Position numbers and translations under genes: made by a program. A stretch of 64,000 nt of DNA from Pseudomonadota bacterium (GTDB lineage Bacteria; Pseudomonadota; Alphaproteobacteria; Reyranellales; Reyranellaceae). Where the stretch lies: NCBI GenBank assembly GCA_020160995.1, contig JAIUOY010000078.1, positions 2,151 to 66,150 of the forward strand, in the 5' to 3' direction. The notes under the pieces are model-generated. The model saw only the letters and a list, made by a program, of their open reading frames with translations, was not told where the DNA came from and searched no databases. Each line of letters opens with the position of its first letter. Position 1 is the stretch's first letter. This document shows, one piece after another, positions 7,215 to 45,236 of the stretch.

Positions 7215-7459
7215 CGAACGGTCCTCCTTGACCGATGGATACGGATGAACAGCGAACGCTTCCGACGTGTAGCCGCTCTCCGCAATCCTGCAAGCTTTGT
7301 GTCGCATGAGTTCATGCGTGCAATCGACTGGAGCTTGCATTTTTTGGACGATCAAACCACCAGCCGTATTTGACTACCCCGATCATAAACCGGCCTTGGC
7401 AACCATGCGTTGCTGTCCTTCCAACTTCCACATACCCTGTAGCTATGGGAGGTGGAGAA

Positions 7460-7966
7460 ATGGTGGACATCGTTACGGACGGCCAGATTCAAGGACTGCG
7501 GGAGCTTCCAAAAAAATTGGTCAACCCGAGAGCGCGGCAAAAGCATACAGAGCGGTTCATCACGCACGATTTCAAAGTGGAAAGCCTCGACGGCACCCAG
7601 AAATTCAGCATCTACAAACGCCAGAATCTGGCGGACTCCACGGACTTCTCAGTCGGAATTCGATGGGAAGGGCGAAGTGCCGAAATCACATTGGCACGTT
7701 ACAATGGCTCCAGCCATGAACATACCAATCACATTGAGGGCGATAAACTCTCCCATGTCTGCCATGTGCATCACGCGACCGAACGATATCAGATGGCGGA
7801 TCGCAAGCCGGAAGGGTACGCTACGGCCACTTCTGATTATATGAGCCTTGACGGAGCGTTTCGGTGTTTACTCGCCGATTGGAATATTCAGCAACCCAAC
7901 GCACCGGAGCCTTCCGGGCAGTCGGGCGATTGCCTGTTCGACGACGCTCCCAATGATGGAACGTGA
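7460..7966 (+). CDS. His-rich putative nuclease/toxin (DUF6978-like)
   Basis: LARYNGSSHEHTNHIE...CHVHHATERY motif; lower GC; ATGA-coupled to the next gene. Confidence 0.55.
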   Translation: MVDIVTDGQIQGLRELPKKLVNPRARQKHTERFITHDFKVESLDGTQKFSIYKRQNLADSTDFSVGIRWEGRSAEITLARYNGSSHEHTNHIEGDKLSHVCHVHHATERYQMADRKPEGYATATSDYMSLDGAFRCLLADWNIQQPNAPEPSGQSGDCLFDDAPNDGT

Positions 7967-8742
7967 TGGCTGATCTTTATACTGACATGGAGAAGTCGCT
8001 CTGCGAGGCGCTATGCGCGGAGGTGCGCATTGTCGCCCGTCCAAACAACGTGTTCGCTGTTTCAACCCCGTTGACCTTTCCGGATGGCGATAGCCTTCCG
8101 ATTTTCCTTCGCCGCCTCCCAGAAGGAGGCGTTGAGTTTACCGACATGGGCAATTCGCTCATGAGGTTAAGCTACGAGACCGATGCGCCGGCTCTCCGCG
8201 AAGGAACACGTGGCCGCATTCTATCTCAGTTGCTGGCCGAATTCGGCCTGGAGGACAGGAGGGGGGAGCTAGTGCTAGCTGTTCCTGGCCATCAGACTGG
8301 GCTAGGTGTCTTTAAGTTCAGCCAAGCACTCACTCGCGTTCATGACTTATCATTTCTTAATCGAGTGAATGTTGAGAGCACGTTCTACGAGGATCTTCGA
8401 AAGGACCTTGAGGAGATTGTTGGCGATCGTCGAATGATCTTGAACTACACGGTTCCGGCAATCGGGCCAGACTATCCAATCGACTACTTCATCCCCGGGT
8501 CGCGTCTGCCGCTTTATGTATTTGGGGTTCCGAATCAGGATAAAGCGAGACTAGCGACAATCGTACTTCAGCATTTATTGAGTAACGGTCAAATTTTCGA
8601 TTCCGCCGTAGTCTTCCGCGACGCTGACCTACTGCCTCGGAGAGATTTCAACCGATTGGCCAACGTTGCAAACGATATTGTAACATCCGCCGATGCAACC
8701 GAAGACTTGACGAGAAAAATTAAGCATAGGCTTGCCGCTTAG
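7963..8742 (+). CDS. DUF1828/DUF1829-like protein
   Basis: VSTPLTFPDGDSLPIFL...FTDMGNSLMRL N-terminal pattern; C-terminal PIDYFIP region is restriction-endonuclease-like. Confidence 0.65.
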   Translation: MMADLYTDMEKSLCEALCAEVRIVARPNNVFAVSTPLTFPDGDSLPIFLRRLPEGGVEFTDMGNSLMRLSYETDAPALREGTRGRILSQLLAEFGLEDRRGELVLAVPGHQTGLGVFKFSQALTRVHDLSFLNRVNVESTFYEDLRKDLEEIVGDRRMILNYTVPAIGPDYPIDYFIPGSRLPLYVFGVPNQDKARLATIVLQHLLSNGQIFDSAVVFRDADLLPRRDFNRLANVANDIVTSADATEDLTRKIKHRLAA

Positions 8743-9107
8743 GGGCGCGAGCATTGTAGGCGTGGAAACGGCAACAGCGTCGTTCGGAGCAATCGACATC
8801 GAGTGGTCCTCCTTGATCGGTGAATCGTGAATGCCGTCAGGAGTAGCCGCAATCCTGCAAGCTTTGTGTCGGTGCCTCGATGTTTGACGGGCGCCGCGCG
8901 CTGTTTCATACAACCCGCATGATCGAGAAGGACACCCACATCGTTGCCCGGCCGGCCGGTATCCCCTTGGCGGGATGCCGGGAAGCGGATCGGACGAACT
9001 AGCAACGAACTAGCCACGCCGATTGTCTGTCTCGGCCTCGCCCCTCAGGGACGAGGCTTTTCGGCGTGGAAAAGTGCCTCGTCCTCCCTTTGTCTCTGGA
9101 GACGAAC

Positions 9108-18553: not shown

Positions 18554-18590
18554 GTAGACCGATCTACATATTATGTAGACCAGTTCTCAT
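18554..18590. promoter_or_regulatory. Probable TetR operators
   Basis: Perfect GTAGA-N4-TCTAC (18554-18567) and an imperfect copy (18573-18590) in the divergent promoter. Confidence 0.65.
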
Positions 18591-18618
18591 AGACGGTCAA
18601 TTCTGCTAGAAAGCGTCG

Positions 18619-19203
18619 ATGGCGAACGCGACGAAGGACCGGATGCTGCAGGCCGCGACCAAGCTCCTGCAGACGCGCGGCTATTACGGGACGGGGCTGA
18701 ACGATGTCCTGGCCGAGAGCGGCACGCCCCGCGGCTCGCTCTACTTCCATTTTCCCGGCGGCAAGGAGCAGCTGGCGCTGGAAGCCACGCGCGCCGCGGT
18801 CGACGAGGTGACGCGCACGACCGCCGAGACCATCGCCCAGGCGGCAACGCCGGGCGCGGCGCTCAAGACCATTTCCGGGCGCATCGTGGAGCTGATGCGA
18901 AGCACGGACTACGAGCGCAGCTGTCCGATCTCGCCGCTGGTGCAGGACGGGGCCAACGACCTGCCCGCCCTTCTCGATCTCTGCCGCGAGGCGTTCGACA
19001 CCTGGATGGGCCTGATGGCCGGGATGCTGCGCGACGCCGGCCTGCCGCCGCGCCGCGCCAGGGCGCTTTCGCTGCTCGCCCAGACGGTGTTCCAGGGCGG
19101 CGCCATCGTGGCGCGCGCCAAGCGCGACGAGCGGATGCTCCTCGACGCGATCGACGAGGTCGCCCGCCTGATCGACCGCGAAATCGCCGACGCTGCGCGC
19201 TAG
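18619..19203 (+). CDS. TetR/AcrR regulator (LmrA/YxaF-like)
   Basis: LLQTRGYYGTGLNDVLAESGTPRGSLYFHFPGGKEQL. Confidence 0.92.
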   Translation: MANATKDRMLQAATKLLQTRGYYGTGLNDVLAESGTPRGSLYFHFPGGKEQLALEATRAAVDEVTRTTAETIAQAATPGAALKTISGRIVELMRSTDYERSCPISPLVQDGANDLPALLDLCREAFDTWMGLMAGMLRDAGLPPRRARALSLLAQTVFQGGAIVARAKRDERMLLDAIDEVARLIDREIADAAR

Positions 19204-19218
19204 CAGACAGGCGCGACG

Positions 19219-20640
19219 GTGGCTTGGCGACCGACCTCGTATTCTGCTGTCGCGAGGCTCCTCGCCGTCGTCGTGGCTGCGGCCGCCGCCTGCGTGACGG
19301 GTGCCGGCGAGGCGGCGGCACAGAATCCGAACCAGGGGCTGCCGATTCCCGCCACGCCGGCGGAGGATCTCACGGCCATCGAGCGCAGCTTCACCCTGCC
19401 CAAGCCGCCGCGCCTCACCTTGTTCCCGCAGCTGCGCGAGACGATGAAGGACCAGCCCGCCTTCCTGCGCGACTCGAAGTTCGACATGAATTTCCGCAGC
19501 TACTACCGCAACGAGGCGGTGAGCGGTCCGGGCGGTTCGCTGAAGCAAGCCTGGGCGGCGGGCGGCGCCGTCGCCTTCGAGACCGGCCGGCTGTTCGACA
19601 TCCTGTCGCTGGGCGGCGTGCTCTACACCTCCCTGCCCGTCGTCGCGCCGCCGGACAACGGCAACACCGGGCTGCTGCTGCCCAACCAGCAGGGCTATGC
19701 CGCGCTCGGCCAGCTCTATGCCCGCGCCCGGTTGTTCGAGACGCATTACATCACGGCCGGCCGCTACTACTACGAGACGCCGTTCATCGGGCCGCACGAC
19801 AACCGCATGTCGCCCAACACCTTCTATGGCTACACGCTGACCGGCACGTTCGGGAATCCGGATGGAAACAACAAAGGCGGCGGGCCGAGCCTGCACTATG
19901 GCGGCGGCTGGATCGGCGCGATCAAGCCGCAGGACAGCATCGACTTCCAGGGCATGGCGCGCGCGGCGGGCGCCGACGCCGACTACGGCACGGCGGTGCT
20001 GGGCGCCCGGCTCGCCTGGGGCAAGGCCTCGATCGGCGCCATCGAGTACTACACGCAAGACACGATCAACATCTTCTACAGCGAGGCCAGGTACGGGCTG
20101 AACCCGGCGCCCGACATCCACCTGCTCGGCGCCGTGCAGTTCGCGGCCCAGAACAGCGTCGGCCGCAACCTGCTGAACGGCGGCACCTACTTCGCGACCA
20201 ATCAGGTGGGCGCCAAGGCCGAGCTGGGCTACGACACCGCGATCCTCACCCTGGCCTACTCCACGGTGAATCCGGGCTTCGCGATCCAGACGCCGTGGAG
20301 CGCCAACCCGTTCTACACCAGCGCGCAGATCCAGAACTTCCAGCGCGCCGGCGAGCAGGCGCTGTCGGTCGGCGCCTCCTACGTCTTCAAGCATCTCGGC
20401 CTGCCGGGCGTGGCGGCGTCGGTCTTCTACTTCAACGGCTGGACCGCCGCCCCCGCCGCCGGCGCGCCGCTGGTCGAGAGCGAATGGAACTTCGCGCTGG
20501 AATGGCGGCCGGAATGGAAGCCGCTGCACGGCCTGTGGCTGCGCGCCCGCTACGGCACCAACGCCGTCTGGCAAGCCGGCACCCTCGCCACCACCGACGA
20601 ACTGCGGCTGATCGCGAGTTATAAGGTCAAGCTCTATTGA
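19219..20640 (+). CDS. OprD-family outer membrane porin
   Basis: Signal peptide, amphipathic beta strands, NFRSYY, ELRLIASY C-terminus. Confidence 0.75.
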   Translation: MAWRPTSYSAVARLLAVVVAAAAACVTGAGEAAAQNPNQGLPIPATPAEDLTAIERSFTLPKPPRLTLFPQLRETMKDQPAFLRDSKFDMNFRSYYRNEAVSGPGGSLKQAWAAGGAVAFETGRLFDILSLGGVLYTSLPVVAPPDNGNTGLLLPNQQGYAALGQLYARARLFETHYITAGRYYYETPFIGPHDNRMSPNTFYGYTLTGTFGNPDGNNKGGGPSLHYGGGWIGAIKPQDSIDFQGMARAAGADADYGTAVLGARLAWGKASIGAIEYYTQDTINIFYSEARYGLNPAPDIHLLGAVQFAAQNSVGRNLLNGGTYFATNQVGAKAELGYDTAILTLAYSTVNPGFAIQTPWSANPFYTSAQIQNFQRAGEQALSVGASYVFKHLGLPGVAASVFYFNGWTAAPAAGAPLVESEWNFALEWRPEWKPLHGLWLRARYGTNAVWQAGTLATTDELRLIASYKVKLY

Positions 20641-20730
20641 GGGGGTGGGATACGTTCGCCCCTCTGCCTCGTCAGGGTCTGCCGAATCGCATTTGTCTCG
20701 CGGCAACTCCGGCCGCTCATAGTTAGGGTC

Positions 20731-28933: not shown

Positions 28934-28955
28934 CGTCTCAAGATGGAGCGACACA

Positions 28956-30710
28956 ATGGATGCAAACAGCCGCCACGGTTCGGAGCCCCTGCCATCCACC
29001 TCCAGCGATGCCGAAACGGCGAGTCCCGCGCCGCTCAAGAGCAGCGCCGACACGGCGAGTCCCGCGCCGCGCCAGGGCGGCGCATCGGCCGCCAGCGTGA
29101 CGCGCCGCGGCCTGCTCCTGAACGGCACCACGCTGGCCGGCGCCGCCGCGCTCGGCACCGCCGCCGCGCCGCTGCAACAGGCGCAGGCGCAAGGACAGAC
29201 GCAGGGCCAGACACAGGGCCAGACGCAGGGACAGGCCGCCGGCCGCGGCAAGCCCAACATCCTGGTCATCTTCGGCGACGACGTGGGCTACTGGAACATC
29301 AGCGCCTATCATCGCGGCGTCATGGGCTACAGCACGCCCAACATCGATCGCCTGGCCAAGGAAGGCGGGCAGTTGATGAGCTACTACGCCCAGCAGAGCT
29401 GCACCGCCGGCCGCTCCGCCTTCATCACCGGACAGATGCCGTTCCGCACCGGCCTCAGCAAGGTCGGCCTGCCGGGCTCCGACCTCGGCCTGCGCAAGGA
29501 AGACCCGACCATCGCCGAACTGCTGAAGCCGCTGGGCTATGCGACCGGCCAGTTCGGCAAGAACCATCTCGGCGACAAGGACGAGTTCCTGCCGACCAAC
29601 CACGGCTTCGACGAGTTCTTCGGCAACCTCTACCACCTCAACGCCGAGGAGGAGCCGGAGAATCCCGACTATCCGAAGGACCCGGAGTTCCGCAAGAAGT
29701 ACGGCCCGCGCGGCGTCATCAAGTCGTCGGCCGACGGCAAGATCGAGGATACCGGCCCGCTCACCAAGAAGCGCATGGAGACCATCGACGAGGAAGTGCT
29801 GGCGGTCGCGCAGGACTTCATCGCGCGCGCCAAGCAGGCCAACAAGCCGTTCTTCACCTGGTTCAACACGACGCGGATGCATAACTTCACCCACGTCAAG
29901 GAAGCCGACCTGGGCAAGAGCAAGCTCGGCTTCTACGCCGACGGCATGATCGAGCACGACGCGATCGTGGGCAAGCTGCTCGCGACGGTCGACCAGCTCG
30001 GCCTCACCGACAACACCATCGTGATCTACACGACCGACAACGGGCCGATGGTCTGCCTGTTCCCCGATTCGGGCACGACGCCGTTCCGCGGCGAGAAGAA
30101 CACCAACTGGGACGGCGGCTGGCGCGTGCCGGCGCTGATCCGCTGGCCGGGCACGATCAAGCCGGGCACGGTCTACGACGACCTGTTCGCCGGCGAGGAC
30201 TGGCTGCCGACGCTGCTGGCGGCGGCGGGCGTGCCCGACATCAAGCAGAAGCTGCTGGCGGGCCACACCGCCGGCGCCAAGACCTTCAAGGTCCATCTCG
30301 ACGGCTACAACCAGTCGGACTATCTCTCGGGCAAGAGCCCGACGACGGCGCGCAAGGAGTTCTTCTACTTCAGCGACGACGGCGACCTGCTGGCGCTCCG
30401 CTACGAACGGATCAAGATCCATTTCATGATCCAGGAGGCGACCGGCATCGACGTCTGGCGTCATCCCTTCACCATCCTGCGGGCGCCGATCTTCTTCGAC
30501 CTCGCCATCGACCCCGGCGAACGCGCCCAGGAGGGCATGGGCTACAACGACTGGTGGTACCGACGGGCGTTCCTGGTGGTGCCGGCGCAGGCGATCGTCG
30601 CGCAGACGCTGGCGACCTTCAAAGACTTCCCGCCGCGCCAGAAACCGGCGAGCTTCACCGTCGACCGCGCCATGGAAGCCCTGACGCGAACGGTCAGCGG
30701 CGGCCGGTAA
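28956..30710 (+). CDS. Tat-exported arylsulfatase
   Basis: RRGLL Tat motif; PNILVIFGDD; SCTAGRSAFITG formylglycine motif; GKNHLG; TDNG; GEK. Confidence 0.92.
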   Translation: MDANSRHGSEPLPSTSSDAETASPAPLKSSADTASPAPRQGGASAASVTRRGLLLNGTTLAGAAALGTAAAPLQQAQAQGQTQGQTQGQTQGQAAGRGKPNILVIFGDDVGYWNISAYHRGVMGYSTPNIDRLAKEGGQLMSYYAQQSCTAGRSAFITGQMPFRTGLSKVGLPGSDLGLRKEDPTIAELLKPLGYATGQFGKNHLGDKDEFLPTNHGFDEFFGNLYHLNAEEEPENPDYPKDPEFRKKYGPRGVIKSSADGKIEDTGPLTKKRMETIDEEVLAVAQDFIARAKQANKPFFTWFNTTRMHNFTHVKEADLGKSKLGFYADGMIEHDAIVGKLLATVDQLGLTDNTIVIYTTDNGPMVCLFPDSGTTPFRGEKNTNWDGGWRVPALIRWPGTIKPGTVYDDLFAGEDWLPTLLAAAGVPDIKQKLLAGHTAGAKTFKVHLDGYNQSDYLSGKSPTTARKEFFYFSDDGDLLALRYERIKIHFMIQEATGIDVWRHPFTILRAPIFFDLAIDPGERAQEGMGYNDWWYRRAFLVVPAQAIVAQTLATFKDFPPRQKPASFTVDRAMEALTRTVSGGR

Positions 30711-30711
30711 C

Positions 30712-30744
30712 GCCCCGTTCATGGCCCCGTTCATGGCCCCGCTC
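30712..30744. repeat. 12-bp tandem repeat GCCCCGTTCATG x2 plus partial
   Basis: Sits at the sulfatase/initiator junction and contains the initiator stop. Confidence 0.75.
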
Positions 30745-35175: not shown

Positions 35176-35883
35176 CTACACCTGGTACCAGATATCGCCG
35201 TTGTTGCCGCCGGACGGCGCCGCGGTCGAGACGGTGCGCTGGCCCTTGCCGTTGAGGCCGGGCGCGATCTTGGCGTCCGTGACCTGGCCGTCGGCGATCT
35301 TGATGGTCGTCACGGCATCGTTGGCCAGCTTCACGGTGGTGACGTGGCCGTCCCAGATCTCGTTCACGCCCACCGCGTTCAGCACGGCGAGCCCGCCCAG
35401 GCCGAGATTGACGCGAGCCGCCCCGACATTGTTCGCGCCCGTGCCGCCCACCGCGATGCCCAGCGCGGCAATGCCCGTGATGCTGCCGCCGGTGATCGAC
35501 ACGCTGTTGCCGTTCTGCGTCGCCATCGAGCCCAGCCCGAGACTGCCGCGCGCCCCGGCGGAGTCGGTGGCGCCGGTGCCGCCCCAGGCCAGCGGCACGA
35601 CATTCGCCGTCGCCACCACGCCCAGCCCGAGATTGCTGCGTGCGCCCGCCGCGGTGGTTGCCCCCGTGCCGCCGCCGGCGACCGATATGCCCTGCGTGTA
35701 GTAGACGCCGTCCCAGAATTTCTCGAACAGCACGCTGGTTGGATTGAACCGGATCGCCCCGTTGGGGAGGTTGGTCGGCTGGCTGTAACTCAGCATGGTG
35801 AGCGACGCGTGGTCGCGATCTTTGATCATCTGCATCACGTCGGTGTAGAGCGATGCGTTCTGCGGATTGTTCCAGTCGGCCAT
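35176..35883 (-). CDS. Tail fibre protein
   Basis: Three GGTGA...ARxxLGL repeats and VTTxKLAxxAVT repeats; follows the J-like gene. Confidence 0.75.
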   Translation of the reverse strand: MADWNNPQNASLYTDVMQMIKDRDHASLTMLSYSQPTNLPNGAIRFNPTSVLFEKFWDGVYYTQGISVAGGGTGATTAAGARSNLGLGVVATANVVPLAWGGTGATDSAGARGSLGLGSMATQNGNSVSITGGSITGIAALGIAVGGTGANNVGAARVNLGLGGLAVLNAVGVNEIWDGHVTTVKLANDAVTTIKIADGQVTDAKIAPGLNGKGQRTVSTAAPSGGNNGDIWYQV

Positions 35884-35904
35884 TTCGGTATCTCCTTATA
35901 AAGT

Positions 35905-36015
35905 CCTCATCCTGAGGAGCGCCGCACAGCGGCGCGTCTCGAAGGATGGGAACGCGGACCTTGCCTGCTGCCCATCCTTCGAGACGCTCACTCCGTTCGC
36001 TCCTCAGGATGAGGG
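35905..36015. repeat. Palindromic repeat family A, inverted pair
   Basis: Copies at 35905-35950 and 35971-36015. Confidence 0.88.
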
Positions 36016-36037
36016 CGTTGTTGTCGCGCTGTGACGA

Positions 36038-39000
36038 TCAGTATCCCCGTGCGGTCCAGCTCACCTGGCCCGAAAGGCGGTTGCCGGCGGCGTCGAACAA
36101 CAGAATCTTGAAGCTTGTCGGATAGGGCACGCCGGCGAAGTCGTAGATCGCGTAGCGCGCCGCGGTGCCCACGGGCGTCGTCTGGATCGAACTCACCGAG
36201 GTGAACGGCGTGGTGAAGAGGACGGTCGTGCCACCGCTGTCGCCGGCGCCGGCCGAGACCATCCCGGCATCCGTCTTGGTCTTGGAGGCAAGCTTCACCG
36301 ACATCCCGCCGATCGCGCACACCGCGCCGGTGCTGGCAAAGCCCAGGGTCACGCGCAGATGGCGGAAATTCGCCACGTATTGCTGCGAGCCGGTGCCGAC
36401 CATGGTCCAGGTCAGCCCGTCGAGGCTGCTTTCGAGCGTCGTGGTCATGGCCACCGCGCCGGAGACGTCGGCCTTGCTGACATTGATCGTCACCAGCGTG
36501 GCGTCGACCGTCGAGCCGTAGTCGAAGGTCTCGGCGTAGGAGGCGGTGCCCGGGCCGGGATCGAGCCAGTCGAGGTAGCCGGCGTCGATCTGGTCCTGCG
36601 GCTGGTCCCAGCCGCGGTTCGTGAAGTGCGTCAGCCAGGTCTCGCCGGTATGGGTCGGGCCGTAGAGCACGCCGCCCTGCAGGGTCATGTTGACCTTGGT
36701 GCCCGCAAAGATCGACGGCCATTCGACGCGCAGCAGATAATCCGGCGGCTGGTTGACCACCGCCGTCACCGACGTCGGCACGCCTTCGTTGCCGCCGCTG
36801 TCGACCGCCGCCACCCAGTAGGTGTAGGTGCCGGCCGCGCTCTCGAACACGCTGGTGAAGGTGCCGGACTTGTCGCCGATCAGTGTGCCGGTCGACCACG
36901 CCCCGCCCTTCTTCACCACGTAGCGGTCGATGGGCAGCGCCGAGGTCGCGCTGCCCCACTTCAGCAGCACGTTGTTGTCGATCACCTGCGCGGCGAGGCC
37001 GGAAACGGCGGTCGGCGCGGCGACGTTGAGCGTGGCCGAGCCCGCGCCGCCGTAATTGCCCGCCTTGTCGATGGCCGCGACCCAGAAGGTGCGGCCGCCG
37101 CCCCAGCGCACCGGCGAGGTGAAGGTGGTGCCCTTGACGCGCGAGACGAACGCGCCGCTCGCCCAGTCGCCGCCCTGGCGGATTTCGTACTCCTCGACCT
37201 GGAAGGAGGCGGCGCCGCCGGTCCAGGCGATCTTGTAGAGGTCGGACTCCAGCGCGACCGAGACCGAGGGTGTCGGCGGTGCGGCGACCACCACGTCGAG
37301 GCTTGCCGGCACGGGGCTGTAGATGCCCTGCGGCCGCGTTACGGCGGCGACCCAGTAGGTGTGCGTGCCCGCCCCGACGCCCTTCTCGGTATAGCGCAGC
37401 TCGCGCGGCGTGCCGACCTTGGTGGCGTCGGCCCAGCTCGCGCCGCGCCGCACTTCGTAGTAGTCGACGTTGAGGTCCTCCACCGCGTCCCATTTGATGG
37501 CGACGCCGTCGGGATCGTAGACGGGCTGCAGGCCGGTGACGTTGCTGGGCGGCACCGCGGTGGTGAGCGTGATGTCGGGCGCTACCATCCACGCGCTGGT
37601 CTTGCCGTTCAGCGCCTTGGCCCGCACGCGGAAAGCGTAGACGCCTTCCTGGCTGTCCTGATACTCGATGCTGGTCATCGAGGTCGTGCCGACGGTCTGG
37701 TAGTCGATGTCCTGCGGCCCCTTGACCTGCACCTCGTAGGCATAGACGCGGCCGTCGTCCGACTTCTCCCACGACAGGATCGCCGCCGCGCGCACCGCCG
37801 AGCCCACCCGATAGAGGCGCATCATGGAGGATGGCCCGGTCGGCGCCACGATCGGCCCGGTCGGCGTCACATTGTAGGGCGGCGGCGGGACGACGAGCCC
37901 CTTCTCGACGCGATCGAACTTGGCGGGGTCGTGGAACACGCCCATCGCCTCGAAGGTCGCCGGCCCGACCTCGATGTTGGAGACCAGCAGGAACTGCCGC
38001 GCCTCCAGCGACGTCGAGGTGATGGCCCACACCGCGCCGGCCAGCGGCACCTCGTGCAGCGGCGTCGACCAGGTGAAGGTCGCCGTCTCGCCCGCCGCGT
38101 TGGTCAGCGTGCGCTTCTGCAGGGTGCCGTCGGGCATGGTGATGTGCAGCGTGTAGCTGAACGCCGCCAGCACCGCGTAAGCCTGGTCGACCGTCACGCT
38201 GTCCGGCGTGGCCGAGACGATGCGGCCGCCGAAGATCTGCTGGGCATAGTTCTCGTCGGCGATCGACACGATGTCGCCGGGGAACTTGTCGGCCAGTTCG
38301 AGGCCGGAGCGGAAATGCACCGTCTCGGTCGCCGTGCGCTCGGTGTCGAGCACCCACTTGCCGGTGCGGATCGCCTGCCCTCGATTTGTGCAGCCATAGG
38401 CCACGATGTCGATCTGGCGCACGCCGTAGAGCGCCACGCCCTCGGGATCGTCGACCCATTCGACGGCGGGACGATAGGCGTCGGCCGGATCGTTCCACAC
38501 GACCTTGGCCGTGGTGTGCCGCGCCTTGAGCGAGGTGCCCTCGTACTTGAACTCGCCGCCCAGCACGTTGGCGTTGGTGAACAGCGCCACCGGCGACTTG
38601 GGCATGTCGGCGGTTGCCCGCACCGCGCCGGACGACCAGAACGGCATGCCGCGGAAGATCGACGCCATCGTGTTGACGACGGCATAGGCTTCCTGCCGGC
38701 TGTTCAGCAGCATGTTGCAGGTGTAGCGCGGCTCCTTGCCCCCGGCGCCGTCGTCGACGCCGAGATAGGCGCCGCTCTCGTCGACCGCGTCGCAATACTG
38801 GCCGATGGTGTAGAGGTCCCACTTCCAGGGATTGACCGCCGCCGGATCGAGGCCGAGCCCGTAGCGCGTGTTGGTCAGCAGGTCGTAGAAGCACCAGGCG
38901 GGATTGTCGGACCAGTCGGTCTTGAAGGTGCCGTTCCAGTCGCCGGTATAGCTGCGGGTGAGCGGATCGTAGTTCGACGGGATCTTGATCAGCAGGCCCT

Positions 39001-39805
39001 TGACGTCGTAGGAGCGCGCCGGCGCGGATCCCGAGAACTGCGCGGTGTCGATCTGCATGCCGCAATAGGCGACGTTGGGATGGGCGAGCTTGCCGTCGAC
39101 CACTTCGGTGATCGAGGTCCAGAAGAGTTTGTCCTTGAACCATTCCTCCGGGTCGTCGTCGTTCTCGCGCTGGATCTTGATGTCCCACGGCGCGCCGCCG
39201 GCCGGCAGCGCCACGCGATAGTCGCGCTGGTAGGTCGAGGTCGTCTTGCCGTGGAAGCCGACATAGTGCGTCTGCACGAAGGCGCCGCCGTGCGCCTTGA
39301 CGGAGATGAAGAAGTTCGACGTGTAGGGGTTGATGTCGCCCGTCTCGTTGTTCTGCATGTAGAGCGCGGGCGTCGAGATCTTGACGATGACGGCGTTGGC
39401 CTGCGGATTGGAAACGGTGCGCGTGACGCCGCCGTTGGACTTGCGGATCTCCAGCCCCTGCCCACCGCCCAGCGACACCGTGTTGCGGCTCGACGGGAAG
39501 CCCGCCATGTAGGTCTGGACGCCGAAGGGCGCGCCGTAGCGCGTATCCCAGGCGACGCCGGTGAAGTTGAAGGTGCCGTCGGCGTTCATGAGCGGCGTGT
39601 CGTCGAAGAAGATCGACTGGTCCTCGGCGACCAGACCCTTGATCGGCCCTTCGCACCAGAGATCGAGGAAGCGCGCGATGGAGCGCGACTGCAGGGAATT
39701 GGGCGCCTCGACGGGCGTGCGCCCCACCGGCTCCGACGCCGCCCCGCCCTTGCCGCCGCTGCCGCCGCGCCCGAAGACGGTGTGGCTCGGGTTGATGGAC
39801 CTCAC
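36038..39805 (-). CDS. Tail tip / host-specificity protein (lambda J-like) with FN3-type domains
   Basis: DLWCEGPIKGL; WSDNPAWCFYDLL; EPRYTCN; GCTNRGQAIRTGKW; GTG start after AAGGAGG. Confidence 0.95.
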   Translation of the reverse strand: MRSINPSHTVFGRGGSGGKGGAASEPVGRTPVEAPNSLQSRSIARFLDLWCEGPIKGLVAEDQSIFFDDTPLMNADGTFNFTGVAWDTRYGAPFGVQTYMAGFPSSRNTVSLGGGQGLEIRKSNGGVTRTVSNPQANAVIVKISTPALYMQNNETGDINPYTSNFFISVKAHGGAFVQTHYVGFHGKTTSTYQRDYRVALPAGGAPWDIKIQRENDDDPEEWFKDKLFWTSITEVVDGKLAHPNVAYCGMQIDTAQFSGSAPARSYDVKGLLIKIPSNYDPLTRSYTGDWNGTFKTDWSDNPAWCFYDLLTNTRYGLGLDPAAVNPWKWDLYTIGQYCDAVDESGAYLGVDDGAGGKEPRYTCNMLLNSRQEAYAVVNTMASIFRGMPFWSSGAVRATADMPKSPVALFTNANVLGGEFKYEGTSLKARHTTAKVVWNDPADAYRPAVEWVDDPEGVALYGVRQIDIVAYGCTNRGQAIRTGKWVLDTERTATETVHFRSGLELADKFPGDIVSIADENYAQQIFGGRIVSATPDSVTVDQAYAVLAAFSYTLHITMPDGTLQKRTLTNAAGETATFTWSTPLHEVPLAGAVWAITSTSLEARQFLLVSNIEVGPATFEAMGVFHDPAKFDRVEKGLVVPPPPYNVTPTGPIVAPTGPSSMMRLYRVGSAVRAAAILSWEKSDDGRVYAYEVQVKGPQDIDYQTVGTTSMTSIEYQDSQEGVYAFRVRAKALNGKTSAWMVAPDITLTTAVPPSNVTGLQPVYDPDGVAIKWDAVEDLNVDYYEVRRGASWADATKVGTPRELRYTEKGVGAGTHTYWVAAVTRPQGIYSPVPASLDVVVAAPPTPSVSVALESDLYKIAWTGGAASFQVEEYEIRQGGDWASGAFVSRVKGTTFTSPVRWGGGRTFWVAAIDKAGNYGGAGSATLNVAAPTAVSGLAAQVIDNNVLLKWGSATSALPIDRYVVKKGGAWSTGTLIGDKSGTFTSVFESAAGTYTYWVAAVDSGGNEGVPTSVTAVVNQPPDYLLRVEWPSIFAGTKVNMTLQGGVLYGPTHTGETWLTHFTNRGWDQPQDQIDAGYLDWLDPGPGTASYAETFDYGSTVDATLVTINVSKADVSGAVAMTTTLESSLDGLTWTMVGTGSQQYVANFRHLRVTLGFASTGAVCAIGGMSVKLASKTKTDAGMVSAGAGDSGGTTVLFTTPFTSVSSIQTTPVGTAARYAIYDFAGVPYPTSFKILLFDAAGNRLSGQVSWTARGY

Positions 39806-39828
39806 AATGCGCCTCCTTCGACGACCAT

Positions 39829-39958
39829 CCTCATCCTGAGGAGGCGCAACGCGCCGTCTCGAAGGATGGGCAACAGGCACGGTGCGCGTTCCCATCCTTC
39901 GAGACGCTCGCTCGGCGCGGCGTATCCTCCGCGCTCTCGATCGCTCCTCAGGATGAGG
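39829..39958. repeat. Palindromic repeat family A, inverted pair
   Basis: Copies at 39829-39870 and 39891-39958. Confidence 0.85.
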
Positions 39959-40216
39959 CTTTGGCTGTCCACAGCTCGGCTCCCGCATAGGCCTCAACAG
40001 CCGACAGCGTAGCGGCGGCGGGTGCTGGATGAGGCCGATGCGGCCGCGGTGGCTCTGAATCGGACCACCAGGCTCCGGACATCTGGCGAACCGGCGCGGG
40101 GGCCGGGGCGGCGCCGTCGCTTCCGTCTCGACTGCGGTGAAGAGGGCCGGAAAGGCAGCGGCCCCTCCCGACGGGAGGCGGCCGGGGTCGCTCCGGGCGG
40201 GACGGTCGCGGGCCGA

Positions 40217-40939
40217 CTACTCTTTCGCCGGGCGTCGCTTGGCCTCCACACGCCTTTCGATGTCGCGATGGTCTCTGCCCAGGATACGAATCGGACCGGC
40301 CGGCCGCACCGCCGTCGCCTCGCCCTCTCCCTCCAGGGCAACGGTGATGTTCGTGGCGCTGGCCAGAGCGAAGACCACGCTGCTGCCGCTTTCCATCGCG
40401 ACAGCGTCCGGACTGAAGCCCTTCTCCTCGACAGCGACCGTCCGTGCCTCCGACTCGAATTTCTCCCCGGCCTTAGCCCGTCCGACGTCTATCCGGCCGA
40501 CCAGACCGTTCCTTCCAGCGTGCATCTTGTAGCGGCCCGGCCGGATCAGGGTAACGGCATACATGTCGCCCGACTGGAGCCGCCTGCTGTCGAAGGCCAG
40601 TTCGCCATTCCCCCGCAGCACGACCTGAAAGCCGCGACTGCCCTTGCTAGCATAGAAGACCGCATACCCAACCTGCTCCTTTGCGGTGGTAGCGCGATAC
40701 TTGCGGGGTAGGCCGTTAGCGTTGGGGCCGGCAATCACGTTCAGATCGATCTGCACCGAGGACGGTTCGGCGTCTTCCGTCACAGTGATCCCGAAAGTTC
40801 CGACGACGGCCTTGCCGTAGTGAACCTCGCCCTCGTATTCTCCGACCGTCAACGGATGAATGATCGAGGCCAGCACACCGAGCGCGTCGGACTCGAAAAC
40901 CGTGGCCCGCAGCATGGCGGTGTTGACGAGTGTGCTCAT
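40217..40939 (-). CDS. Hypothetical all-beta protein with cupredoxin-like segments
   Basis: FDSRRLQSGDMYAVTLIRPGRY and GFSPDAVAMESGSSVVF resemble cupredoxin strands in permuted order, without Cu ligands. Confidence 0.6.
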   Translation of the reverse strand: MSTLVNTAMLRATVFESDALGVLASIIHPLTVGEYEGEVHYGKAVVGTFGITVTEDAEPSSVQIDLNVIAGPNANGLPRKYRATTAKEQVGYAVFYASKGSRGFQVVLRGNGELAFDSRRLQSGDMYAVTLIRPGRYKMHAGRNGLVGRIDVGRAKAGEKFESEARTVAVEEKGFSPDAVAMESGSSVVFALASATNITVALEGEGEATAVRPAGPIRILGRDHRDIERRVEAKRRPAKE

Positions 40940-40940
40940 G

Positions 40941-41867
40941 TCAGACTCCGATTGAAGCCGAAATCGTGAGCTCCGGATCTGTCACGACGACTTTGGGATC
41001 GACCACAGGCACCAGGACAGGCACCAGGACGGGGCCGCCGGACATAGCCTCGGCCGGCATGATCGGATAGGGATTCTCCAGCTCGAAGATCGGCGTCTTC
41101 TTGGCAAAGTGCTGCAGGACCAGCTGAACGGCCAGATCAAATAGGCCGATGGAAATGCCGAGAAGGTTGGACAGCCATTCCTCAATATCGTCGCCAATAT
41201 CGAGAATGTCCCGGATCAGATCGGCGAAGCTGCCAAGAATTGCCTCCACCAGGTCCTGCGCCCAGTCGGGCAACCAGCCGAGGATCGTATCGACGACCGC
41301 TGCGATCAACTTGTCGAGCAGGGCGCCGACGGTGTCAGCAATGTCGATGAGATCGATGTCCAGCCAGCCCGGATTGAGAAAGAACCGCCATTTGTCCGGC
41401 ACGCCCTGCGCATGCGCCTGCCAGACGCTCATGCCGGCATTGCCGGGGTCGTCGAAATGCTCGGTGCGTATGCCGCAGGTTCCGGAAATCTCTGACCGGA
41501 TGAGCCCGCTCAGATCGAGGGGCACCTTGAGATCGGGATCGGCCTCGAAGAAGCAGTATCGCGGCAGGCGGATGATGCACCCGAACGGACTGGGCAGGAT
41601 GCAGTTTCCACCGACGCATACCTTGGGAATGTTGAGCCCCGGCGTGACGACCAAGGGATCGTAAACAATGTCGAGTTCCTTGAGGAGCACGGTGTTGTTG
41701 CTCTGAAAGTCGATGCGGCCCTTCTCCAAGCGAATCCCGACCGTCCAGTCGATGGAGAAGTGGACGAGATCGACCGAGCCGCTCGCCTGCTCGCGGAGCT
41801 TGCCGCGCAGAACTCGAAACACCTGCTGTACGGTGCTTTCGGACAACGCGATCTCAACGTCGGCCAT
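40941..41867 (-). CDS. Hypothetical protein, possible BPI/TULIP-like tubular fold
   Basis: IALSESTVQQ N-terminus, long amphipathic strands, Cys cluster, acidic helix, final LTISASI strand. Confidence 0.6.
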   Translation of the reverse strand: MADVEIALSESTVQQVFRVLRGKLREQASGSVDLVHFSIDWTVGIRLEKGRIDFQSNNTVLLKELDIVYDPLVVTPGLNIPKVCVGGNCILPSPFGCIIRLPRYCFFEADPDLKVPLDLSGLIRSEISGTCGIRTEHFDDPGNAGMSVWQAHAQGVPDKWRFFLNPGWLDIDLIDIADTVGALLDKLIAAVVDTILGWLPDWAQDLVEAILGSFADLIRDILDIGDDIEEWLSNLLGISIGLFDLAVQLVLQHFAKKTPIFELENPYPIMPAEAMSGGPVLVPVLVPVVDPKVVVTDPELTISASIGV

Positions 41868-41878
41868 GGCACGCCCCC

Positions 41879-42745
41879 CTAGGAAGCTACGGCGTCGATG
41901 AATACCGCCACCCGGTCGTTGGCGATGCTCGGATTGAACGGGACGTTGCCGGATGTGGGCGTCAGCCCCACGACCAGCTGTCCGAACTTGCCCAACCCGA
42001 AGATGAGGTCGTCGACCGCCACCTTCAGCCGGGGCAATAGGCTCAGCCGAACCGTCGCTTCGATAAGGCACTCCAGGATGGCTTCGAGCCCCTCGGGCCT
42101 GATGTCGACCAGTTCGAGGCCATCGAGGGCGAGGCTGAGGCGCTTGCCGAACGCGTCGTCCTTCACCGCGACGGTGCCGGTTGCAAACAGCGACAGGCAG
42201 AAGCACTTGATGTTTTCGCGATGCACGGGCAACGGCCGGGCCCGGGGCGGCGGCCGATCGTCCTCCGGACGAAACTTGTCGAAGGCGCCCAAGGTATCGC
42301 GAGGGTCTGCCGGGCGGACCGTGCCTTCGACGATCTCCGCGATCTTGTCGAGATACTCCTTGCCGGGACAGGCCAGGCCCAGGCAGACCTCTATCTTCAG
42401 GGCGAACTGTTGCGGCCTGAGCGGGTCAAGCTCCCGAGGCAGCGTAAACTGACTGCCAGGATGGAAGTCGATGCGCAGATCCGCCAGTTGGGCGCAGTAT
42501 TCGAACCCCCAGGTCCCGCCGGTTCCCGGAACTGGCAGGAGCGGTTGAAGGGCCACTCTGGGCTGACTTATCGGCAGACCCGGCGCGACCTCGACCACCT
42601 CGCAAAGCAGCTCCGGCTCCCCGACAAACGCCGCCGTTCCATAGTTGAACAGCGAGGGCCGTTGCCGGCGCACGTTCAGGATCAGCTTGTTGAAGGCGCC
42701 TTCCGAGACAGAAGTATGAATACTGCAGAAGTCTGTCGCAGCCAT
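41879..42745 (-). CDS. Hypothetical Cys-rich protein, possible BPI/TULIP-like fold
   Basis: SVSEGAFNKLI N-terminus; LELVDI..EGLEAILECL; final RVAVFI strand. Confidence 0.6.
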   Translation of the reverse strand: MAATDFCSIHTSVSEGAFNKLILNVRRQRPSLFNYGTAAFVGEPELLCEVVEVAPGLPISQPRVALQPLLPVPGTGGTWGFEYCAQLADLRIDFHPGSQFTLPRELDPLRPQQFALKIEVCLGLACPGKEYLDKIAEIVEGTVRPADPRDTLGAFDKFRPEDDRPPPRARPLPVHRENIKCFCLSLFATGTVAVKDDAFGKRLSLALDGLELVDIRPEGLEAILECLIEATVRLSLLPRLKVAVDDLIFGLGKFGQLVVGLTPTSGNVPFNPSIANDRVAVFIDAVAS

Positions 42746-43001
42746 GAGGCAATCCCCGATTGCGCGATGTCCTTTTGCACTCTCTACTTTTACGAGTACC
42801 TGGACTCATAGTATTGTCGCACATGCCGCGCAAGCCAAAACAGGTTCTCCGTGTGGCACAGGATTGGACCACCCCCTTAAGGGGTAGGCGACCTCCTCGC
42901 CTGAACACATGCACGTGAAATAGGCATACGCCAGAACAACCTTGAATCGCCGGTACTCGTTCACGAGAATTTCCGGACGCTACAACTTTGGGGCATGTCC
43001 G

Positions 43002-43847
43002 GTGGCGAAGGACAACCAGGCGGGGGACAAACCACAGACGACCATACTGGCCGAGCGCGCCTGCAAGGTCGGCGGCGGCGTCTGCGCGGCCAGCATCGGC
43101 AGCGCCCAGACCCAGCTTCAGGACTGGACCTGGCTGTTCATGGCGTCGGGGACCATCGGCGCGGCCGCCTTCTGCGCCGGCGGCCTGTTCATGATCTTCG
43201 ACGGCCACAGGGCCATCCGAAGCTCCAGCAAGCGGAAGGAGGTCGTCCGCCGCGGCGTGCAGCTCGCCGGCATCACGGGCGTGCTGGCCATCGTCGGTTA
43301 TTTCGTGGCCGACAATTTCGAGCCGCTGGGACGCATCTTCGGCCGCGCCCGGCCGGCGGTGGAAGCCAGCCGGCCCGCGACCAACGATCCGCCGGAAAGC
43401 AGGGCAAACTCCGTCGAGGCGCCCTCGCCTCCAACCTCGCCTTCGCCCCCGGCTCAGGCCCAAGCCCAAGCCCAAGCCCAGCAACCGACCTCGGGCACGA
43501 ACACCGCCGCGCTGGCGCCCCCGGCTTCGGCATCGACGCCGGTTCCTGCGCCGGTTCCTGCGCCTGCCCCTGCTCCGGCCCAGGCCAGTCCGCCGCCGTC
43601 GGAAATCGTCTCGCTGTACGGCACCACGCCGCGGGCGCTGTGCGGGCAGGCCGACATGAGCGCGCGGCGCAGCAGCTCGCTCCGGCCCGCGCCCGCCGGC
43701 TGGATTCTCTACAGCACCGACTATTTCTCCGGCTTCAAGGAACAGCCGCTGGCGTTCGGCGAGCCCGTCAGCATCGGCAACTGCACGCTCGTGCTGGAAG
43801 GCATCGATCCGGACCTGCCGCGGCTGGACTTCAGGATCGTCAGATGA
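43002..43847 (+). CDS. Membrane-anchored protein with Pro/Ala-rich linker
   Basis: Two hydrophobic segments, PA/QA-rich stalk, small C-terminal beta domain; start uncertain (43002 or 43140). Confidence 0.6.
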   Translation: MAKDNQAGDKPQTTILAERACKVGGGVCAASIGSAQTQLQDWTWLFMASGTIGAAAFCAGGLFMIFDGHRAIRSSSKRKEVVRRGVQLAGITGVLAIVGYFVADNFEPLGRIFGRARPAVEASRPATNDPPESRANSVEAPSPPTSPSPPAQAQAQAQAQQPTSGTNTAALAPPASASTPVPAPVPAPAPAPAQASPPPSEIVSLYGTTPRALCGQADMSARRSSSLRPAPAGWILYSTDYFSGFKEQPLAFGEPVSIGNCTLVLEGIDPDLPRLDFRIVR

Positions 43848-43858
43848 GGGGGCGCGGC

Positions 43859-44470
43859 ATGGCAAACAGGATCTTGACCGGCATGGTCGGAGGCGTTCTC
43901 GCGGCCGTCGCCGCCGCCGGCACGGCATCCGCCTGCGAGAAGCTCGTCGACATGCCGCCGCCGCGCATCGAGGAGATGATGGAGGTGCTGAAGGACGGCG
44001 GCGGCGGCAGCGAGCTGAAGCAGCTCCTCGCCTTCGAGGAGCTGGCCTGTTCGAGCCGGCCCGCCGTCCGCAAGTTCGCGCTCGATACCGGCCTCGCCTC
44101 CAAGAGCAAGCCGCTGCGCAGCCAGTCCTTCGCCGCGCTGCTGATGCAACGCGACCAGATCCGCCTGGACCTGCTCGAAGAACTGAAGGGCGACCGCACG
44201 ATGGAGATGTGGCTGCGCAACAATGGCCGCAGCCTCGCCTACCCGTTCCACAACAGGGACGCGGCGCAGAACTGCATCTCGCTTTCGGCCAGCTACAAGT
44301 GCCCCGGCCCGCAGATGATCGCCATCGACGGGCTGAACATCCGCATCGTCGACCCGCAGCGCCACCTCACCGGCACCTTCGCCCTCCAGCCCGACAATTC
44401 CCTGCGCGGCACCATCCTCGTCAAACGCGCGGGACGGCCCGTTGCGGCCAAGATCGAACTGGAGAAGTGA
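43859..44470 (+). CDS. Exported hypothetical protein
   Basis: Signal peptide ending TASA-C; Cys pairs; 11 nt after the previous gene. Confidence 0.65.
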   Translation: MANRILTGMVGGVLAAVAAAGTASACEKLVDMPPPRIEEMMEVLKDGGGGSELKQLLAFEELACSSRPAVRKFALDTGLASKSKPLRSQSFAALLMQRDQIRLDLLEELKGDRTMEMWLRNNGRSLAYPFHNRDAAQNCISLSASYKCPGPQMIAIDGLNIRIVDPQRHLTGTFALQPDNSLRGTILVKRAGRPVAAKIELEK

Positions 44471-44477
44471 ACGAGAG

Positions 44478-45236
44478 CTACAGCTTGCCGCCCGAGAAGG
44501 CGTGACGGACCGTTGTGGTGCCTGGCTTGACGGCGGTGACGGTGCCCTCGATCTGATCGGTCGAGACCGACGCCGACACCAGGGTCGAGCCGATGCGCAT
44601 GCGGCCATAGAGGATCGGGATCGGGCCGCCCTGCTCCGACGTGTTGACCGGACCGCCGTAGATGAAGCTGGTCCGCGCCTCGGGCCGCTCCATGTTGGTG
44701 TAAGCCGCCTGCGAGGCCTGCGGCGTCGGCGAGATGAGCTGCGAGACGCCGGTGAGCGCCGTCATCAGGCCGAGCGAGGCAATGTTGCCGTAGGTGATCG
44801 AACCAAGAATGGCGCCGGTGCCGATAGCGCTGCCAAAGGAAAATGTCGCTGCCCCAGCTCCAGATGTCGCGGCGGCGGCGGCCCCGCCGAGAAGACCGGC
44901 TGCACCGATGAATGCACCCGCGATCAAGACTGTGCCGAGGATGATCTTGCCGACCGTCTTGCCGGTGTCGCCGCCTGCGCCCATCGCTGCGGGCATGATG
45001 TGGATGTCGTGTTTGCCGAGCGTCATCGGCAGTTCGGCGAGATCGAGGTCGATGCCGCTGCGCCGCGTCGCTCCTTTGATGAAGGAATAGGCCGGCCCGC
45101 GGAAGAAATATTCCTTGAAGCCCGGCCGGATCGCCGACAGCGCCCAGACGGCTTCGGGCAGGGTGTCGACGTCGAGCCGGTGGCGATAGCCGAAGCGCCG
45201 GCCCAGCGCGCCATAGAGATAGACCTGGCGCATCAT
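44478..45236 (-). CDS. Tail assembly protein (lambda I-like)
   Basis: LYGALGRRFG...EAVWAL; NTSEQGGPIPILYGRMRIGS. Confidence 0.92.
   Translation of the reverse strand: MMRQVYLYGALGRRFGYRHRLDVDTLPEAVWALSAIRPGFKEYFFRGPAYSFIKGATRRSGIDLDLAELPMTLGKHDIHIMPAAMGAGGDTGKTVGKIILGTVLIAGAFIGAAGLLGGAAAAATSGAGAATFSFGSAIGTGAILGSITYGNIASLGLMTALTGVSQLISPTPQASQAAYTNMERPEARTSFIYGGPVNTSEQGGPIPILYGRMRIGSTLVSASVSTDQIEGTVTAVKPGTTTVRHAFSGGKL

Follow-up and report, generated by a model that had tools for sequence, protein, structure and literature searches.

The DNA analysed here is a stretch of 64,000 nucleotides (the window) from contig JAIUOY010000078.1 (assembly GCA_020160995.1, positions 2,151 to 66,150), assigned to the alphaproteobacterial Reyranellaceae, in which three genes, here named A, B and C, lie between the lambda-type phage tail genes I and J. 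The three genes form a conserved unit, and the proteins A and B probably have the tubular lipid-binding (TULIP) fold, an assignment which is based on predicted models and is not proven. We give an even chance to the reading that the trio is a cargo operon of a lambda-like temperate phage, encoding a split double-TULIP with a beta-sandwich partner and binding lipid or another hydrophobic ligand. A first-pass annotation of the window had picked out the trio as an uncharacterised operon and had proposed a survey of its conservation and contexts; the survey bears out a real, co-occurring unit, A-B-C in about 85 loci, which is spread across bacteria and archaea and is mostly cellular.

The set of loci is composed of 80 loci from a scan of one genome per species, six from metagenome contigs and one from a viral contig, all searched as six-frame open reading frames (ORFs) against hidden Markov models of the families A, B and C. 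Wherever the contig is long enough, the three genes are found on one strand in the order A-B-C. Gene C is always the third gene, and in gene-called loci it either overlaps B or follows it after a gap of at most 25 nt. In the window the intergenic gaps are 11 nt between A and B and 1 nt between B and C, and in seven other gene-called loci the gaps of the trio range from -1 to 25 nt. The three minus-strand ORFs were confirmed in the window with the positions and the 11- and 1-nt gaps first described, and a purine-rich run resembling a Shine-Dalgarno sequence lies 6-10 nt 5' of each of the three starts. The start of B was taken as the ATG, the ORF list prolonging the frame to a GTG further upstream.

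No fourth conserved gene accompanies the trio. When the other ORFs within 7 kb were clustered, the commonest cluster occurred in 9 loci, in variable position and on either strand. The 132 nearest-neighbour proteins from about 70 loci fall into 106 Pfam families of at most three members each, including ABC transporters, sulfatases, MFS proteins and dxs. PADLOC matches among them are mad8 (4), mad3 (3) and AriA (2), with otherwise single generic matches. Neither a defence-island signature nor a redox theme nor a recurrent toxin was found among these immediate neighbours, a test which takes one gene on each side of the trio and is hence weak for defence enrichment. As there is no recurrent neighbour and the neighbouring families are heterogeneous, the cassette is regarded as self-contained, without a metabolic or defence-island theme.

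Genes A and B are separate in the window. In 17 of 83 loci they are joined in one stop-free frame, where 15 of the 17 have 32-40 linker residues between the two parts, and the fused chain has about 620 amino acids (the separate lengths add up to 596 aa). Such fusions occur in Actinomycetota, Anaerolineae, Bacteroidota (Catalinimonas), Acidobacteriota (Sulfotelmatobacter), Bathyarchaeota, Nitrososphaera, Nitrosopumilales, Methanoregula and Methanospirillum. Gene fusion is classical evidence for a physical partnership, here between A and B. The earlier suggestion that the products of the trio may form a complex is thus supported for the first two proteins.

Proteins A, B and C have no match at E<=1 in Pfam, NCBIfam or PADLOC, and the PHROGs matches are noise, in agreement with the initial view that the trio belongs to no recognisable family. 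Homologues are nevertheless numerous. For B 148 were found, with 43-79% identity and all with a length of 295-328 aa, and for A 84, with 31-72% identity and none carrying a Pfam family. For C a word-seeded search returned five homologues and an exhaustive HMMER search 722 representative proteins. The E-values of homologues in the three families reach 1e-160, so that the genes cannot be chance reading frames, and the homologues are 'hypothetical proteins'. By mean column identity B is the most conserved of the three (61%), followed by A (43%), and C (28%) evolves much faster than either. Sequence and profile searches of the PDB with A, B and C gave no credible match and no TULIP protein; matches to a kinase (0.0023) and to a phage central fibre (0.055) were rejected as short helical or loop alignments. 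The possibility that A and B are paralogues was likewise rejected (hhalign probability 1.3%). No signal peptide or transmembrane segment was detected in any of the three proteins, the maximal hydropathy over 19 residues (KD19) being 1.33-1.68, and conservation begins at Met1 in all three families, so that the reported lack of signal peptides stands. A literature search for a TULIP-based defence or cytoplasmic system, or for the locus tags of the trio, found nothing, and the cassette appears to be undescribed, no paper, family model or annotation having been found that describes the trio.

The fold of A and B was approached by AlphaFold2 (AF2) models built from the family alignments. The model of A has a predicted local distance difference test score (pLDDT) of 90.2 and a predicted template modelling score (pTM) of 0.82, and the model of B a pLDDT of 82.2 and a pTM of 0.69. 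Secondary structure assignment by DSSP gives for A a helix at residues 15-28, strands at 79-93, 113-125, 179-197 and 200-213, a helix at 217-252 and a few C-terminal strands, and for B a helix at 10-23, strands at 25-33, 37-54, 60-79, 123-138 and 159-176, and helices from 179 onwards. The model of B is made of an N-terminal strand, helix A, five long strands into which a Cys-rich hairpin is inserted, a five-helix acidic region and C-terminal strands. The TULIP topology, consisting of helix A, four to five long curved antiparallel strands and helix B, is present in the predicted models of both proteins. An extra N-terminal strand has been described in double-TULIPs by the authors of the TipA work (bioRxiv 10.1101/2025.09.09.675085), and the model of B has such a strand.

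In Foldseek searches of these models against the PDB, a check which had been proposed together with the first description of the trio, TULIP structures rank at the top for both proteins at sub-significant level. The top matches of A are CETP, BPIFA1/SPLUNC1, JHBP, LBP, BPI, BSP30b, Takeout and OrfX1-OrfX3 (E 5e-3 to 0.3), and those of B are BPI (1ewf/1bp1), CETP, Der p 7 / Der f 7, LBP, OrfX2 and an SMP domain. For the two models the best E-values are 4.7e-3 and 6.8e-3, with a probability of at most 0.92 and template modelling (TM) scores of 0.2-0.33. The original proposal of two TULIP-like proteins therefore stands as to the topology of the models and the ranking of the matches; as to their significance it is not secured, all matches being at about E 5e-3 or weaker. 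Searching the model of B against the viral folds of BFVD gave nothing meaningful (best probability 0.11). On the combined grounds of the fold matches and the A-B fusions, A and B look like a split double-TULIP in their predicted form, the architecture of BPI, CETP and TipA.

To judge from its sequence family, the product of gene C is probably a cupredoxin-like or Ig-like beta-sandwich that has no copper site. Searched against the PDB as a single sequence or as a ten-sequence profile, it gave weak matches to plastocyanin and azurin (E 0.27 and 0.087). The azurin match covers the motif FD..L..G..Y....PG.Y, which is aligned to the copper (C-terminal) loop of azurin. Gene C of the window has itself no Pfam Cupredoxin_1 match. 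Among 74 members of its family sub-threshold matches were seen to Cupredoxin_1 (14), PKD (8) and CarboxypepD_reg (5), the best Cupredoxin_1 score of 22.7 bits (E 1e-4) staying below the gathering score of 27. The parts of the profile are matched in different places: residues 129-154 of the family member P0211 resemble the end of the Cupredoxin_1 profile (76-102), and residues 174-204 of P0213 resemble its start (22-52). The swapped order of these motifs could be due to a circular permutation or to two partial domains. The ligands of a type-1 copper site (His, Cys, His, Met) are absent; in 80 sequences there is no conserved Cys column, and H28 is the only conserved His. The first description of C as a permuted cupredoxin without metal ligands is therefore borne out in the swapped order, the lack of Cys and the sub-threshold family matches, and it is weakened by the azurin match, which disappears with a deeper profile of 74 sequences. 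Two very long proteins, P0305 (2071 aa) and P0344 (4110 aa), give 28 matches each to the C profile, all of them to profile positions 127-151, a strand pair with the motif LIRPGxY; this suggests a likeness between the segment and a strand motif that belongs to a widespread, repeated Ig-like domain. In 73 of 80 sequences of C the last 30 residues carry a net positive charge, and an RW(Q/K)KP motif is frequent there.

Charge and cysteine content distinguish the three proteins further. Of the window proteins A has 8 Cys, B has 5 and C none, which agrees with the initial remark that two of the three are Cys-rich. In A, residues C48, C121, C126, C181, C183 and C226 are near-invariant, being kept in 68-73 of 73 sequences, the ten archaeal members among them, with spacings that include Cx4C and CxC. 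In B, residues C84, C89, C97 and C105 of the hairpin insert are kept in 66-82 of 84 sequences, and the acidic motifs LDIDLIDIAD and ILDIGDDIxEW are invariant. The median isoelectric point is 5.07 in family A, 4.05 in family B and 9.25 in family C, and charge complementarity between acidic A and B and basic C would fit a complex of all three.

The cassette is rare and patchy, being found in at least 99 of 185,579 species representatives. Bacterial carriers belong to more than 12 phyla and include Alpha-, Beta- and Gammaproteobacteria, Desulfobacterota, Bacteroidota, Acidobacteriota, Actinomycetota, Chloroflexota, Cyanobacteria, Bacillota, Deinococcota and Rokubacteria. Archaeal carriers come from several phyla and include Bathyarchaeota, Nitrososphaera, Nitrosopumilales, Methanoregula, Methanospirillum, Methanomassiliicoccales and Methanosuratincola. 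The taxonomic labels are those of the records of metagenome-assembled genomes (MAGs), and MAG contamination could be the source of individual odd placements. Some archaeal copies lie on megabase contigs, and isolate copies are present in Pseudodesulfovibrio cashew, Chitinophaga sp. YR573, Flavobacterium sp. LC2016-01 and Hydrogenophaga sp. A37.

Clustering of B separates an archaeal clade, in which A and B are mostly fused, a Chloroflexota clade, a Bacteroidota clade and one promiscuous clade. The last one unites, at 78-80% identity, copies from Burkholderiaceae, Hydrogenophaga, Syntrophales, a Methanotrichaceae MAG and the viral contig L087. The presence of lineage-specific clades next to a promiscuous and near-identical one points to vertical descent plus recent horizontal transfer. 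The B protein of the Methanotrichaceae MAG (L039, on a 150-kb contig) is 79-80% identical to the Burkholderiaceae, Hydrogenophaga and viral copies and falls outside the archaeal clade, which reflects either a recent transfer between domains or a binning error. The B copy of the window is nearest to chromosomal copies in Allosphingosinicella (60% identity) in the B clustering. The closest relative of the window trio is found on a 4-kb metagenome contig (L094), with a B protein 79% identical; there the trio is followed by a convergent gene for a 256-aa TIR_2-domain protein (3050-3820, minus strand), the sole immediate neighbour seen which has a defence flavour. Mobile elements adjoin the trio in P. 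cashew, where it lies next to an integrase island, and at another locus, where it lies next to transposases.

The cassette is overwhelmingly cellular and only rarely phage-borne. By tblastn B has no match in 50,697 GenBank phage genomes or in 72,556 plasmids; in the same phage genomes gene L of the window's tail module matches 1,553. Cellular assemblies supply 80 of the 81 loci from the genome and viral contig scans, and no phage genes were found around the cellular copies that resemble the one on L087. Among 2.9 million IMG/VR contigs one cassette was matched, that on L087, where the trio lies between a lambda-type terminase and the portal gene on the opposite strand. The large terminase of this contig is split (GpA_nuclease 7070-7990 and GpA_ATPase 7987-8775, minus strand, 7070-8775 as a whole), and the trio stands together with a 329-aa ORF between this terminase and the portal; a frameshift, an error of sequencing or decay of the prophage could account for the divided gene. 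The two lambda-like phages carry different subtypes of the cassette at different places, and it is a moron rather than a tail gene. Its occurrence in two unrelated positions of lambda-like phages means that phages traffic it.

On these grounds we propose that the trio is a self-contained moron operon between I and J whose products are not tail components. Proteins A and B would form a two-barrel TULIP tube, the two halves being fused in about a fifth of the loci. The small and basic protein C, a putative beta-sandwich, would dock as an adaptor on the acidic A-B tube, on an anionic membrane through its positive tail, or on both. The complex would work inside the cell, on the cytoplasmic side of the membrane, a site proposed because none of the three proteins has a signal peptide, and there it may take up, hold or move a lipid or another hydrophobic ligand.

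Several findings weigh against this proposal. No Foldseek match to the PDB reaches E<=1e-3, and the TM scores of 0.2-0.33 are accompanied by large root-mean-square deviations. No sequence or profile link joins A or B to the TULIP families of Pfam or the PDB (LBP_BPI_CETP, JHBP, SMP, DUF1439, P47), and 64 members of family A scanned against Pfam gave no match either. The double-TULIPs known to us are all secreted, unlike the signal-less A, B and C. No lipid-metabolism theme is present among the 132 nearest neighbours. The conserved Cys residues of A and B, retained in archaea as well, and the acidic clusters of B are not explained by a plain lipid carrier and would suggest a metal, cofactor or disulfide role. 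When RNA evidence was sought, the sequence was present only in DNA runs from wastewater and activated sludge.

As to the biological purpose of such a complex, a role in conflict or exclusion is favoured over housekeeping at low confidence. This leaning rests on the mobile, patchy and self-contained nature of the cassette and on the fact that TipA, OrfX/P47 and BPI act in conflict between organisms; a defence-island system of the classical type finds no backing in the gene neighbourhoods. A rival reading, which we consider unlikely, is anti-phage defence or superinfection exclusion, in which the A-B tube would permeabilise a membrane or extract lipid from it and so kill or depolarise the infected cell from inside, C being the sensor or gate. 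It would suit a self-contained and patchy cassette that moves horizontally and is carried by two different temperate phages and in an integrase island, the TIR-domain gene beside the closest relative of the trio, the faster evolution of C (28% column identity, against 43% in A and 61% in B) and the ability of BPI and TipA to destabilise membranes. It has to be set against the lack of PADLOC matches for A, B and C, the few and generic PADLOC matches of the neighbours, whose Pfam families are of housekeeping and transport type, and the large archaeal, Chloroflexota and Bacteroidota clades, which suggest considerable vertical inheritance. The toxin, exclusion or defence role named in the first-pass annotation accordingly found no backing in PADLOC, in a defence-island signature or in a recurrent toxin neighbour.

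A metal, cofactor or redox complex, in which the Cys clusters of A and B bind a metal or an Fe-S centre and C is a degenerate cupredoxin-like partner, is quite unlikely. Such a complex would account for the conservation of Cys in A and B up to the archaea, for the invariant acidic clusters of B and for the recurrent sub-threshold signals of Cupredoxin_1, azurin and plastocyanin in C. However, C has no Cys and one conserved His, and hence no type-1 copper site; the structures matched by the models of A and B belong to lipid carriers and not to metalloproteins, and the neighbours have no redox theme.

Very unlikely in our view is an accessory role of the OrfX/P47 kind, where signal-less TULIPs are freed by lysis of the cell by a phage or otherwise and act outside the cell, where a partner toxin or the membranes of another organism would be the target, with disulfides formed by the Cys residues. 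OrfX1-OrfX3 and OrfX2 are among the fold matches, several TULIP proteins with many conserved Cys would share one operon, and lysis would free the proteins from the phage-borne cassette of the window. Against this, the cassette has no recurrent toxin or other neighbour and no sequence link to the P47/OrfX families, and it is present in methanogens, Bathyarchaeota and Nitrososphaera, mostly on chromosomes without a prophage.

That the three genes encode phage-specific virion or tail-assembly proteins, as their position between I and J on the same strand might suggest, can be dismissed as highly improbable, since 80 of 81 loci are cellular with neighbours which, where examined, are not phage genes, B is absent from the 50,697 phage genomes, the only other viral copy lies in a head module on the opposite strand, the GC content at third codon positions (GC3) is below that of J, K and L, and two opposite-strand ORFs are inserted together with the trio.

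The proposal of a split double-TULIP with a beta-sandwich partner admits of a wider version, in which the trio represents an unrecognised and ancient class of cytoplasmic TULIP machinery with conserved Cys and acidic centres, shared by Bacteria and Archaea and moved between the two domains partly by phages, that serves the extraction, transfer or controlled permeabilisation of membrane lipid and has no described prokaryotic counterpart. This version is offered tentatively and must be held as doubtful.

The features of the locus are given in the table below.

Table. Position of the trio, its flanking genes and the elements inserted with it (window coordinates)
Feature	Position	Strand	Length	Description	Basis
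gene A	41879-42745	minus	288 aa	first gene of the trio	ORF calling
gene B	40941-41867	minus	308 aa	start ATG	ORF calling
gene C	40217-40939	minus	240 aa	third gene of the trio	ORF calling
tail gene I	44478-45236	minus		tail assembly; upstream flank	Pfam Lambda_tail_I 3e-7
tail gene J	36038-39805	minus	1255 aa	tail tip / host specificity; downstream flank	
divergent AT-richer intergenic region	42746-43139			upstream of A, common to A and orfD	
orfD	43140-43847	plus		co-inserted cargo; two hydrophobic helices and a Pro/Ala/Gln-rich linker (QAQAQAQAQ)	
orfE	43859-44470	plus	203 aa	co-inserted cargo; signal-peptide or lipobox-like N-terminus (MANRILTGMVGGVLAAVAAAGTASAC; …AAAGTASAC)	
nested perfect palindromic repeat element	39829-39958			in the C-J spacer	
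palindromic element, second copy	35905-36014			just past J	

The location of the trio between tail genes I and J was confirmed by the Pfam domains of the flanks. Gene J carries FNIII-A_GpJ (1.5e-30) and Phage-tail_3 (4e-20), and further upstream of the trio are found K (Prok-JAB and NLPC_P60), L (Phage_tail_L) and the tape measure protein. The true start of J is the GTG at 39805, preceded by a GGAGG ribosome-binding site, as shown by the gene call on L088, the same phage contig from another sample, and by the start context, and not the TTG at 39997. The trio does lie between I and J as first described; the insert is larger than was noted, reaching from about 39806 to 44477, and is composed of the trio, two plus-strand ORFs and a palindromic repeat element. 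No target-site duplication was seen when repeats were sought at the boundaries of the insert.

The base composition around the trio agrees with the earlier remarks on an AT-rich upstream region and less biased codons. The GC content at 42600-43050 is 0.55-0.57, against 0.66 in the window, and GC3 is 0.78-0.80 in the trio, lower than the 0.90-0.93 of J, K and L; it is likewise low (0.76-0.78) in the tape measure gene and in a 910-aa gene. The divergent intergenic region upstream of A is presumed to hold the promoter of the trio, although a sequence scan found no sigma-70 consensus promoter. Sites resembling terminators are no more frequent at the locus than in shuffled sequence, and tRNA and Rfam scans gave no match anywhere in the window.

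The two plus-strand ORFs of the insert, orfD and orfE, have no Pfam family and are cargo outside the conserved cassette; orfD was not found beside the trio at other loci. The start of orfD is uncertain, with alternatives at 43002 and 42942, and on L088 it is called as a 281-aa gene. A late transcript running from I to J would traverse both ORFs in antisense.

The spacer between the stop of C and the start of J measures 411 nt and holds the palindromic element. This element is about 110-130 nt long, occurs also at 4708-4816 and at about 4422-4467, and is built of outer arms CCTCATCCTGAGGAG / CTCCTCAGGATGAGG and inner arms CGTCTCGAAGGATGGG / CCCATCCTTCGAGACG; in the copies on either side of J these arms are perfect. 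The arm motifs were counted 7 and 9 times, where chance would give about 1 and 0.2. The element looks like a repetitive extragenic palindromic (REP) sequence or a miniature inverted-repeat transposable element (MITE), and it accounts for the spurious upstream extension of the J ORF to the TTG as well as for small ORFs at 35867-36125. It came to light when repeats were sought at the boundaries of the insert and is regarded as unrelated.

In the left half of the window (1-35000) the large ORFs, for example those at 28938-30734 and 18571-20706, have no tblastn match in the 50,697 phage genomes. The ORF at 2584-4242 is 43% identical to a gene of Burkholderia phage KL3, and a further match of this ORF lies in Pseudomonas phage pf8, in a segment whose annotation reads 'putative repressor C protein'. 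Part of the window may thus be host DNA, or else an early region of a very novel kind.

The cassette is a set of two or three genes with hundreds of diverse members and with natural fused and split forms, and it opens the questions of how a double-TULIP is assembled, how it is gated by partners and what a signal-less TULIP does inside a prokaryotic cell. If a conflict or membrane function is true, the trio would be a new type of effector in phage-host biology; if it is only a niche carrier of lipid or cofactor, the outcome would be a useful family definition and not more. To our knowledge the trio, if the TULIP assignment is true, would give the first archaeal TULIPs. The literature consulted has few prokaryotic TULIPs and no archaeal ones (PMC5507252; bioRxiv 10.1101/2025.09.09.675085).

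Among known systems the best fold matches of A and B are the eukaryotic proteins BPI, LBP and CETP (PDB 1bp1, 1ewf, 4m4d, 2obd). They share with the models of A and B barrels made of a helix, a curved antiparallel sheet and a helix, and two barrels per functional unit, A and B being always adjacent and at times fused. Unlike the trio they are secreted proteins of one chain; the matches are weak (E from 5e-3 to 0.1, TM 0.2-0.33), A and B have no Pfam LBP_BPI_CETP match, and in the model of B a Cys hairpin is inserted and five helices of an acidic region stand where a single helix B would be expected. Cupredoxins such as azurin and plastocyanin resemble C in weak sub-threshold matches, whereas C has no copper ligands and a swapped order of motifs.

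Two further groups are bacterial. The OrfX1-3/P47 proteins of clostridial neurotoxin clusters (PDB 8fbf, 8bgm, 9arj) are bacterial TULIPs, several per operon, and are among the fold matches; they have no signal peptides and are carried on mobile elements. They differ from the trio in size and gene number, have no sequence link to it and always accompany a toxin gene, while no neighbour recurs beside the trio. The periplasmic lipoprotein YceB belongs to the second group. With DUF1439 it represents the bacterial single TULIP (Wong & Levine 2017, PMC5507252), a prokaryotic protein with the fold predicted for A and B, and it differs in its single domain, with no Pfam DUF1439 match in A or B; YceB is not among the listed Foldseek matches of either protein.

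A similar architecture is that of TipA/TipB of Bdellovibrio bacteriovorus (bd2538/bd2539), in which the double-TULIP TipA is bound and opened by the beta-sandwich adaptor TipB, the two genes overlapping by 4 nt (bioRxiv 10.1101/2025.09.09.675085). There a double-TULIP of about 570 aa is followed directly by the gene of its small partner; in the trio the predicted double-TULIP, A plus B, is of close to this length and is followed by the gene of C, a putative beta-sandwich. No TipA or TipB chain is found among the PDB sequence or fold matches of the trio; the sequences were not compared directly. By its proposed role C may be compared with TipB, or with the C2 domains that accompany SMP proteins and other TULIPs. 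TipA and TipB are secreted with signal peptides, unlike A, B and C; in the trio the TULIP halves are mostly encoded apart, the partner C exceeds TipB in size (about 235 aa) and ends in a basic tail, and the trio occurs also in archaea and phages. The trio thus combines a probable TULIP-type fold and a TipA/TipB-like architecture with features of its own, being signal-less, split, endowed with Cys and acidic centres, provided with a distinct partner, present in archaea and, in places, phage-borne.

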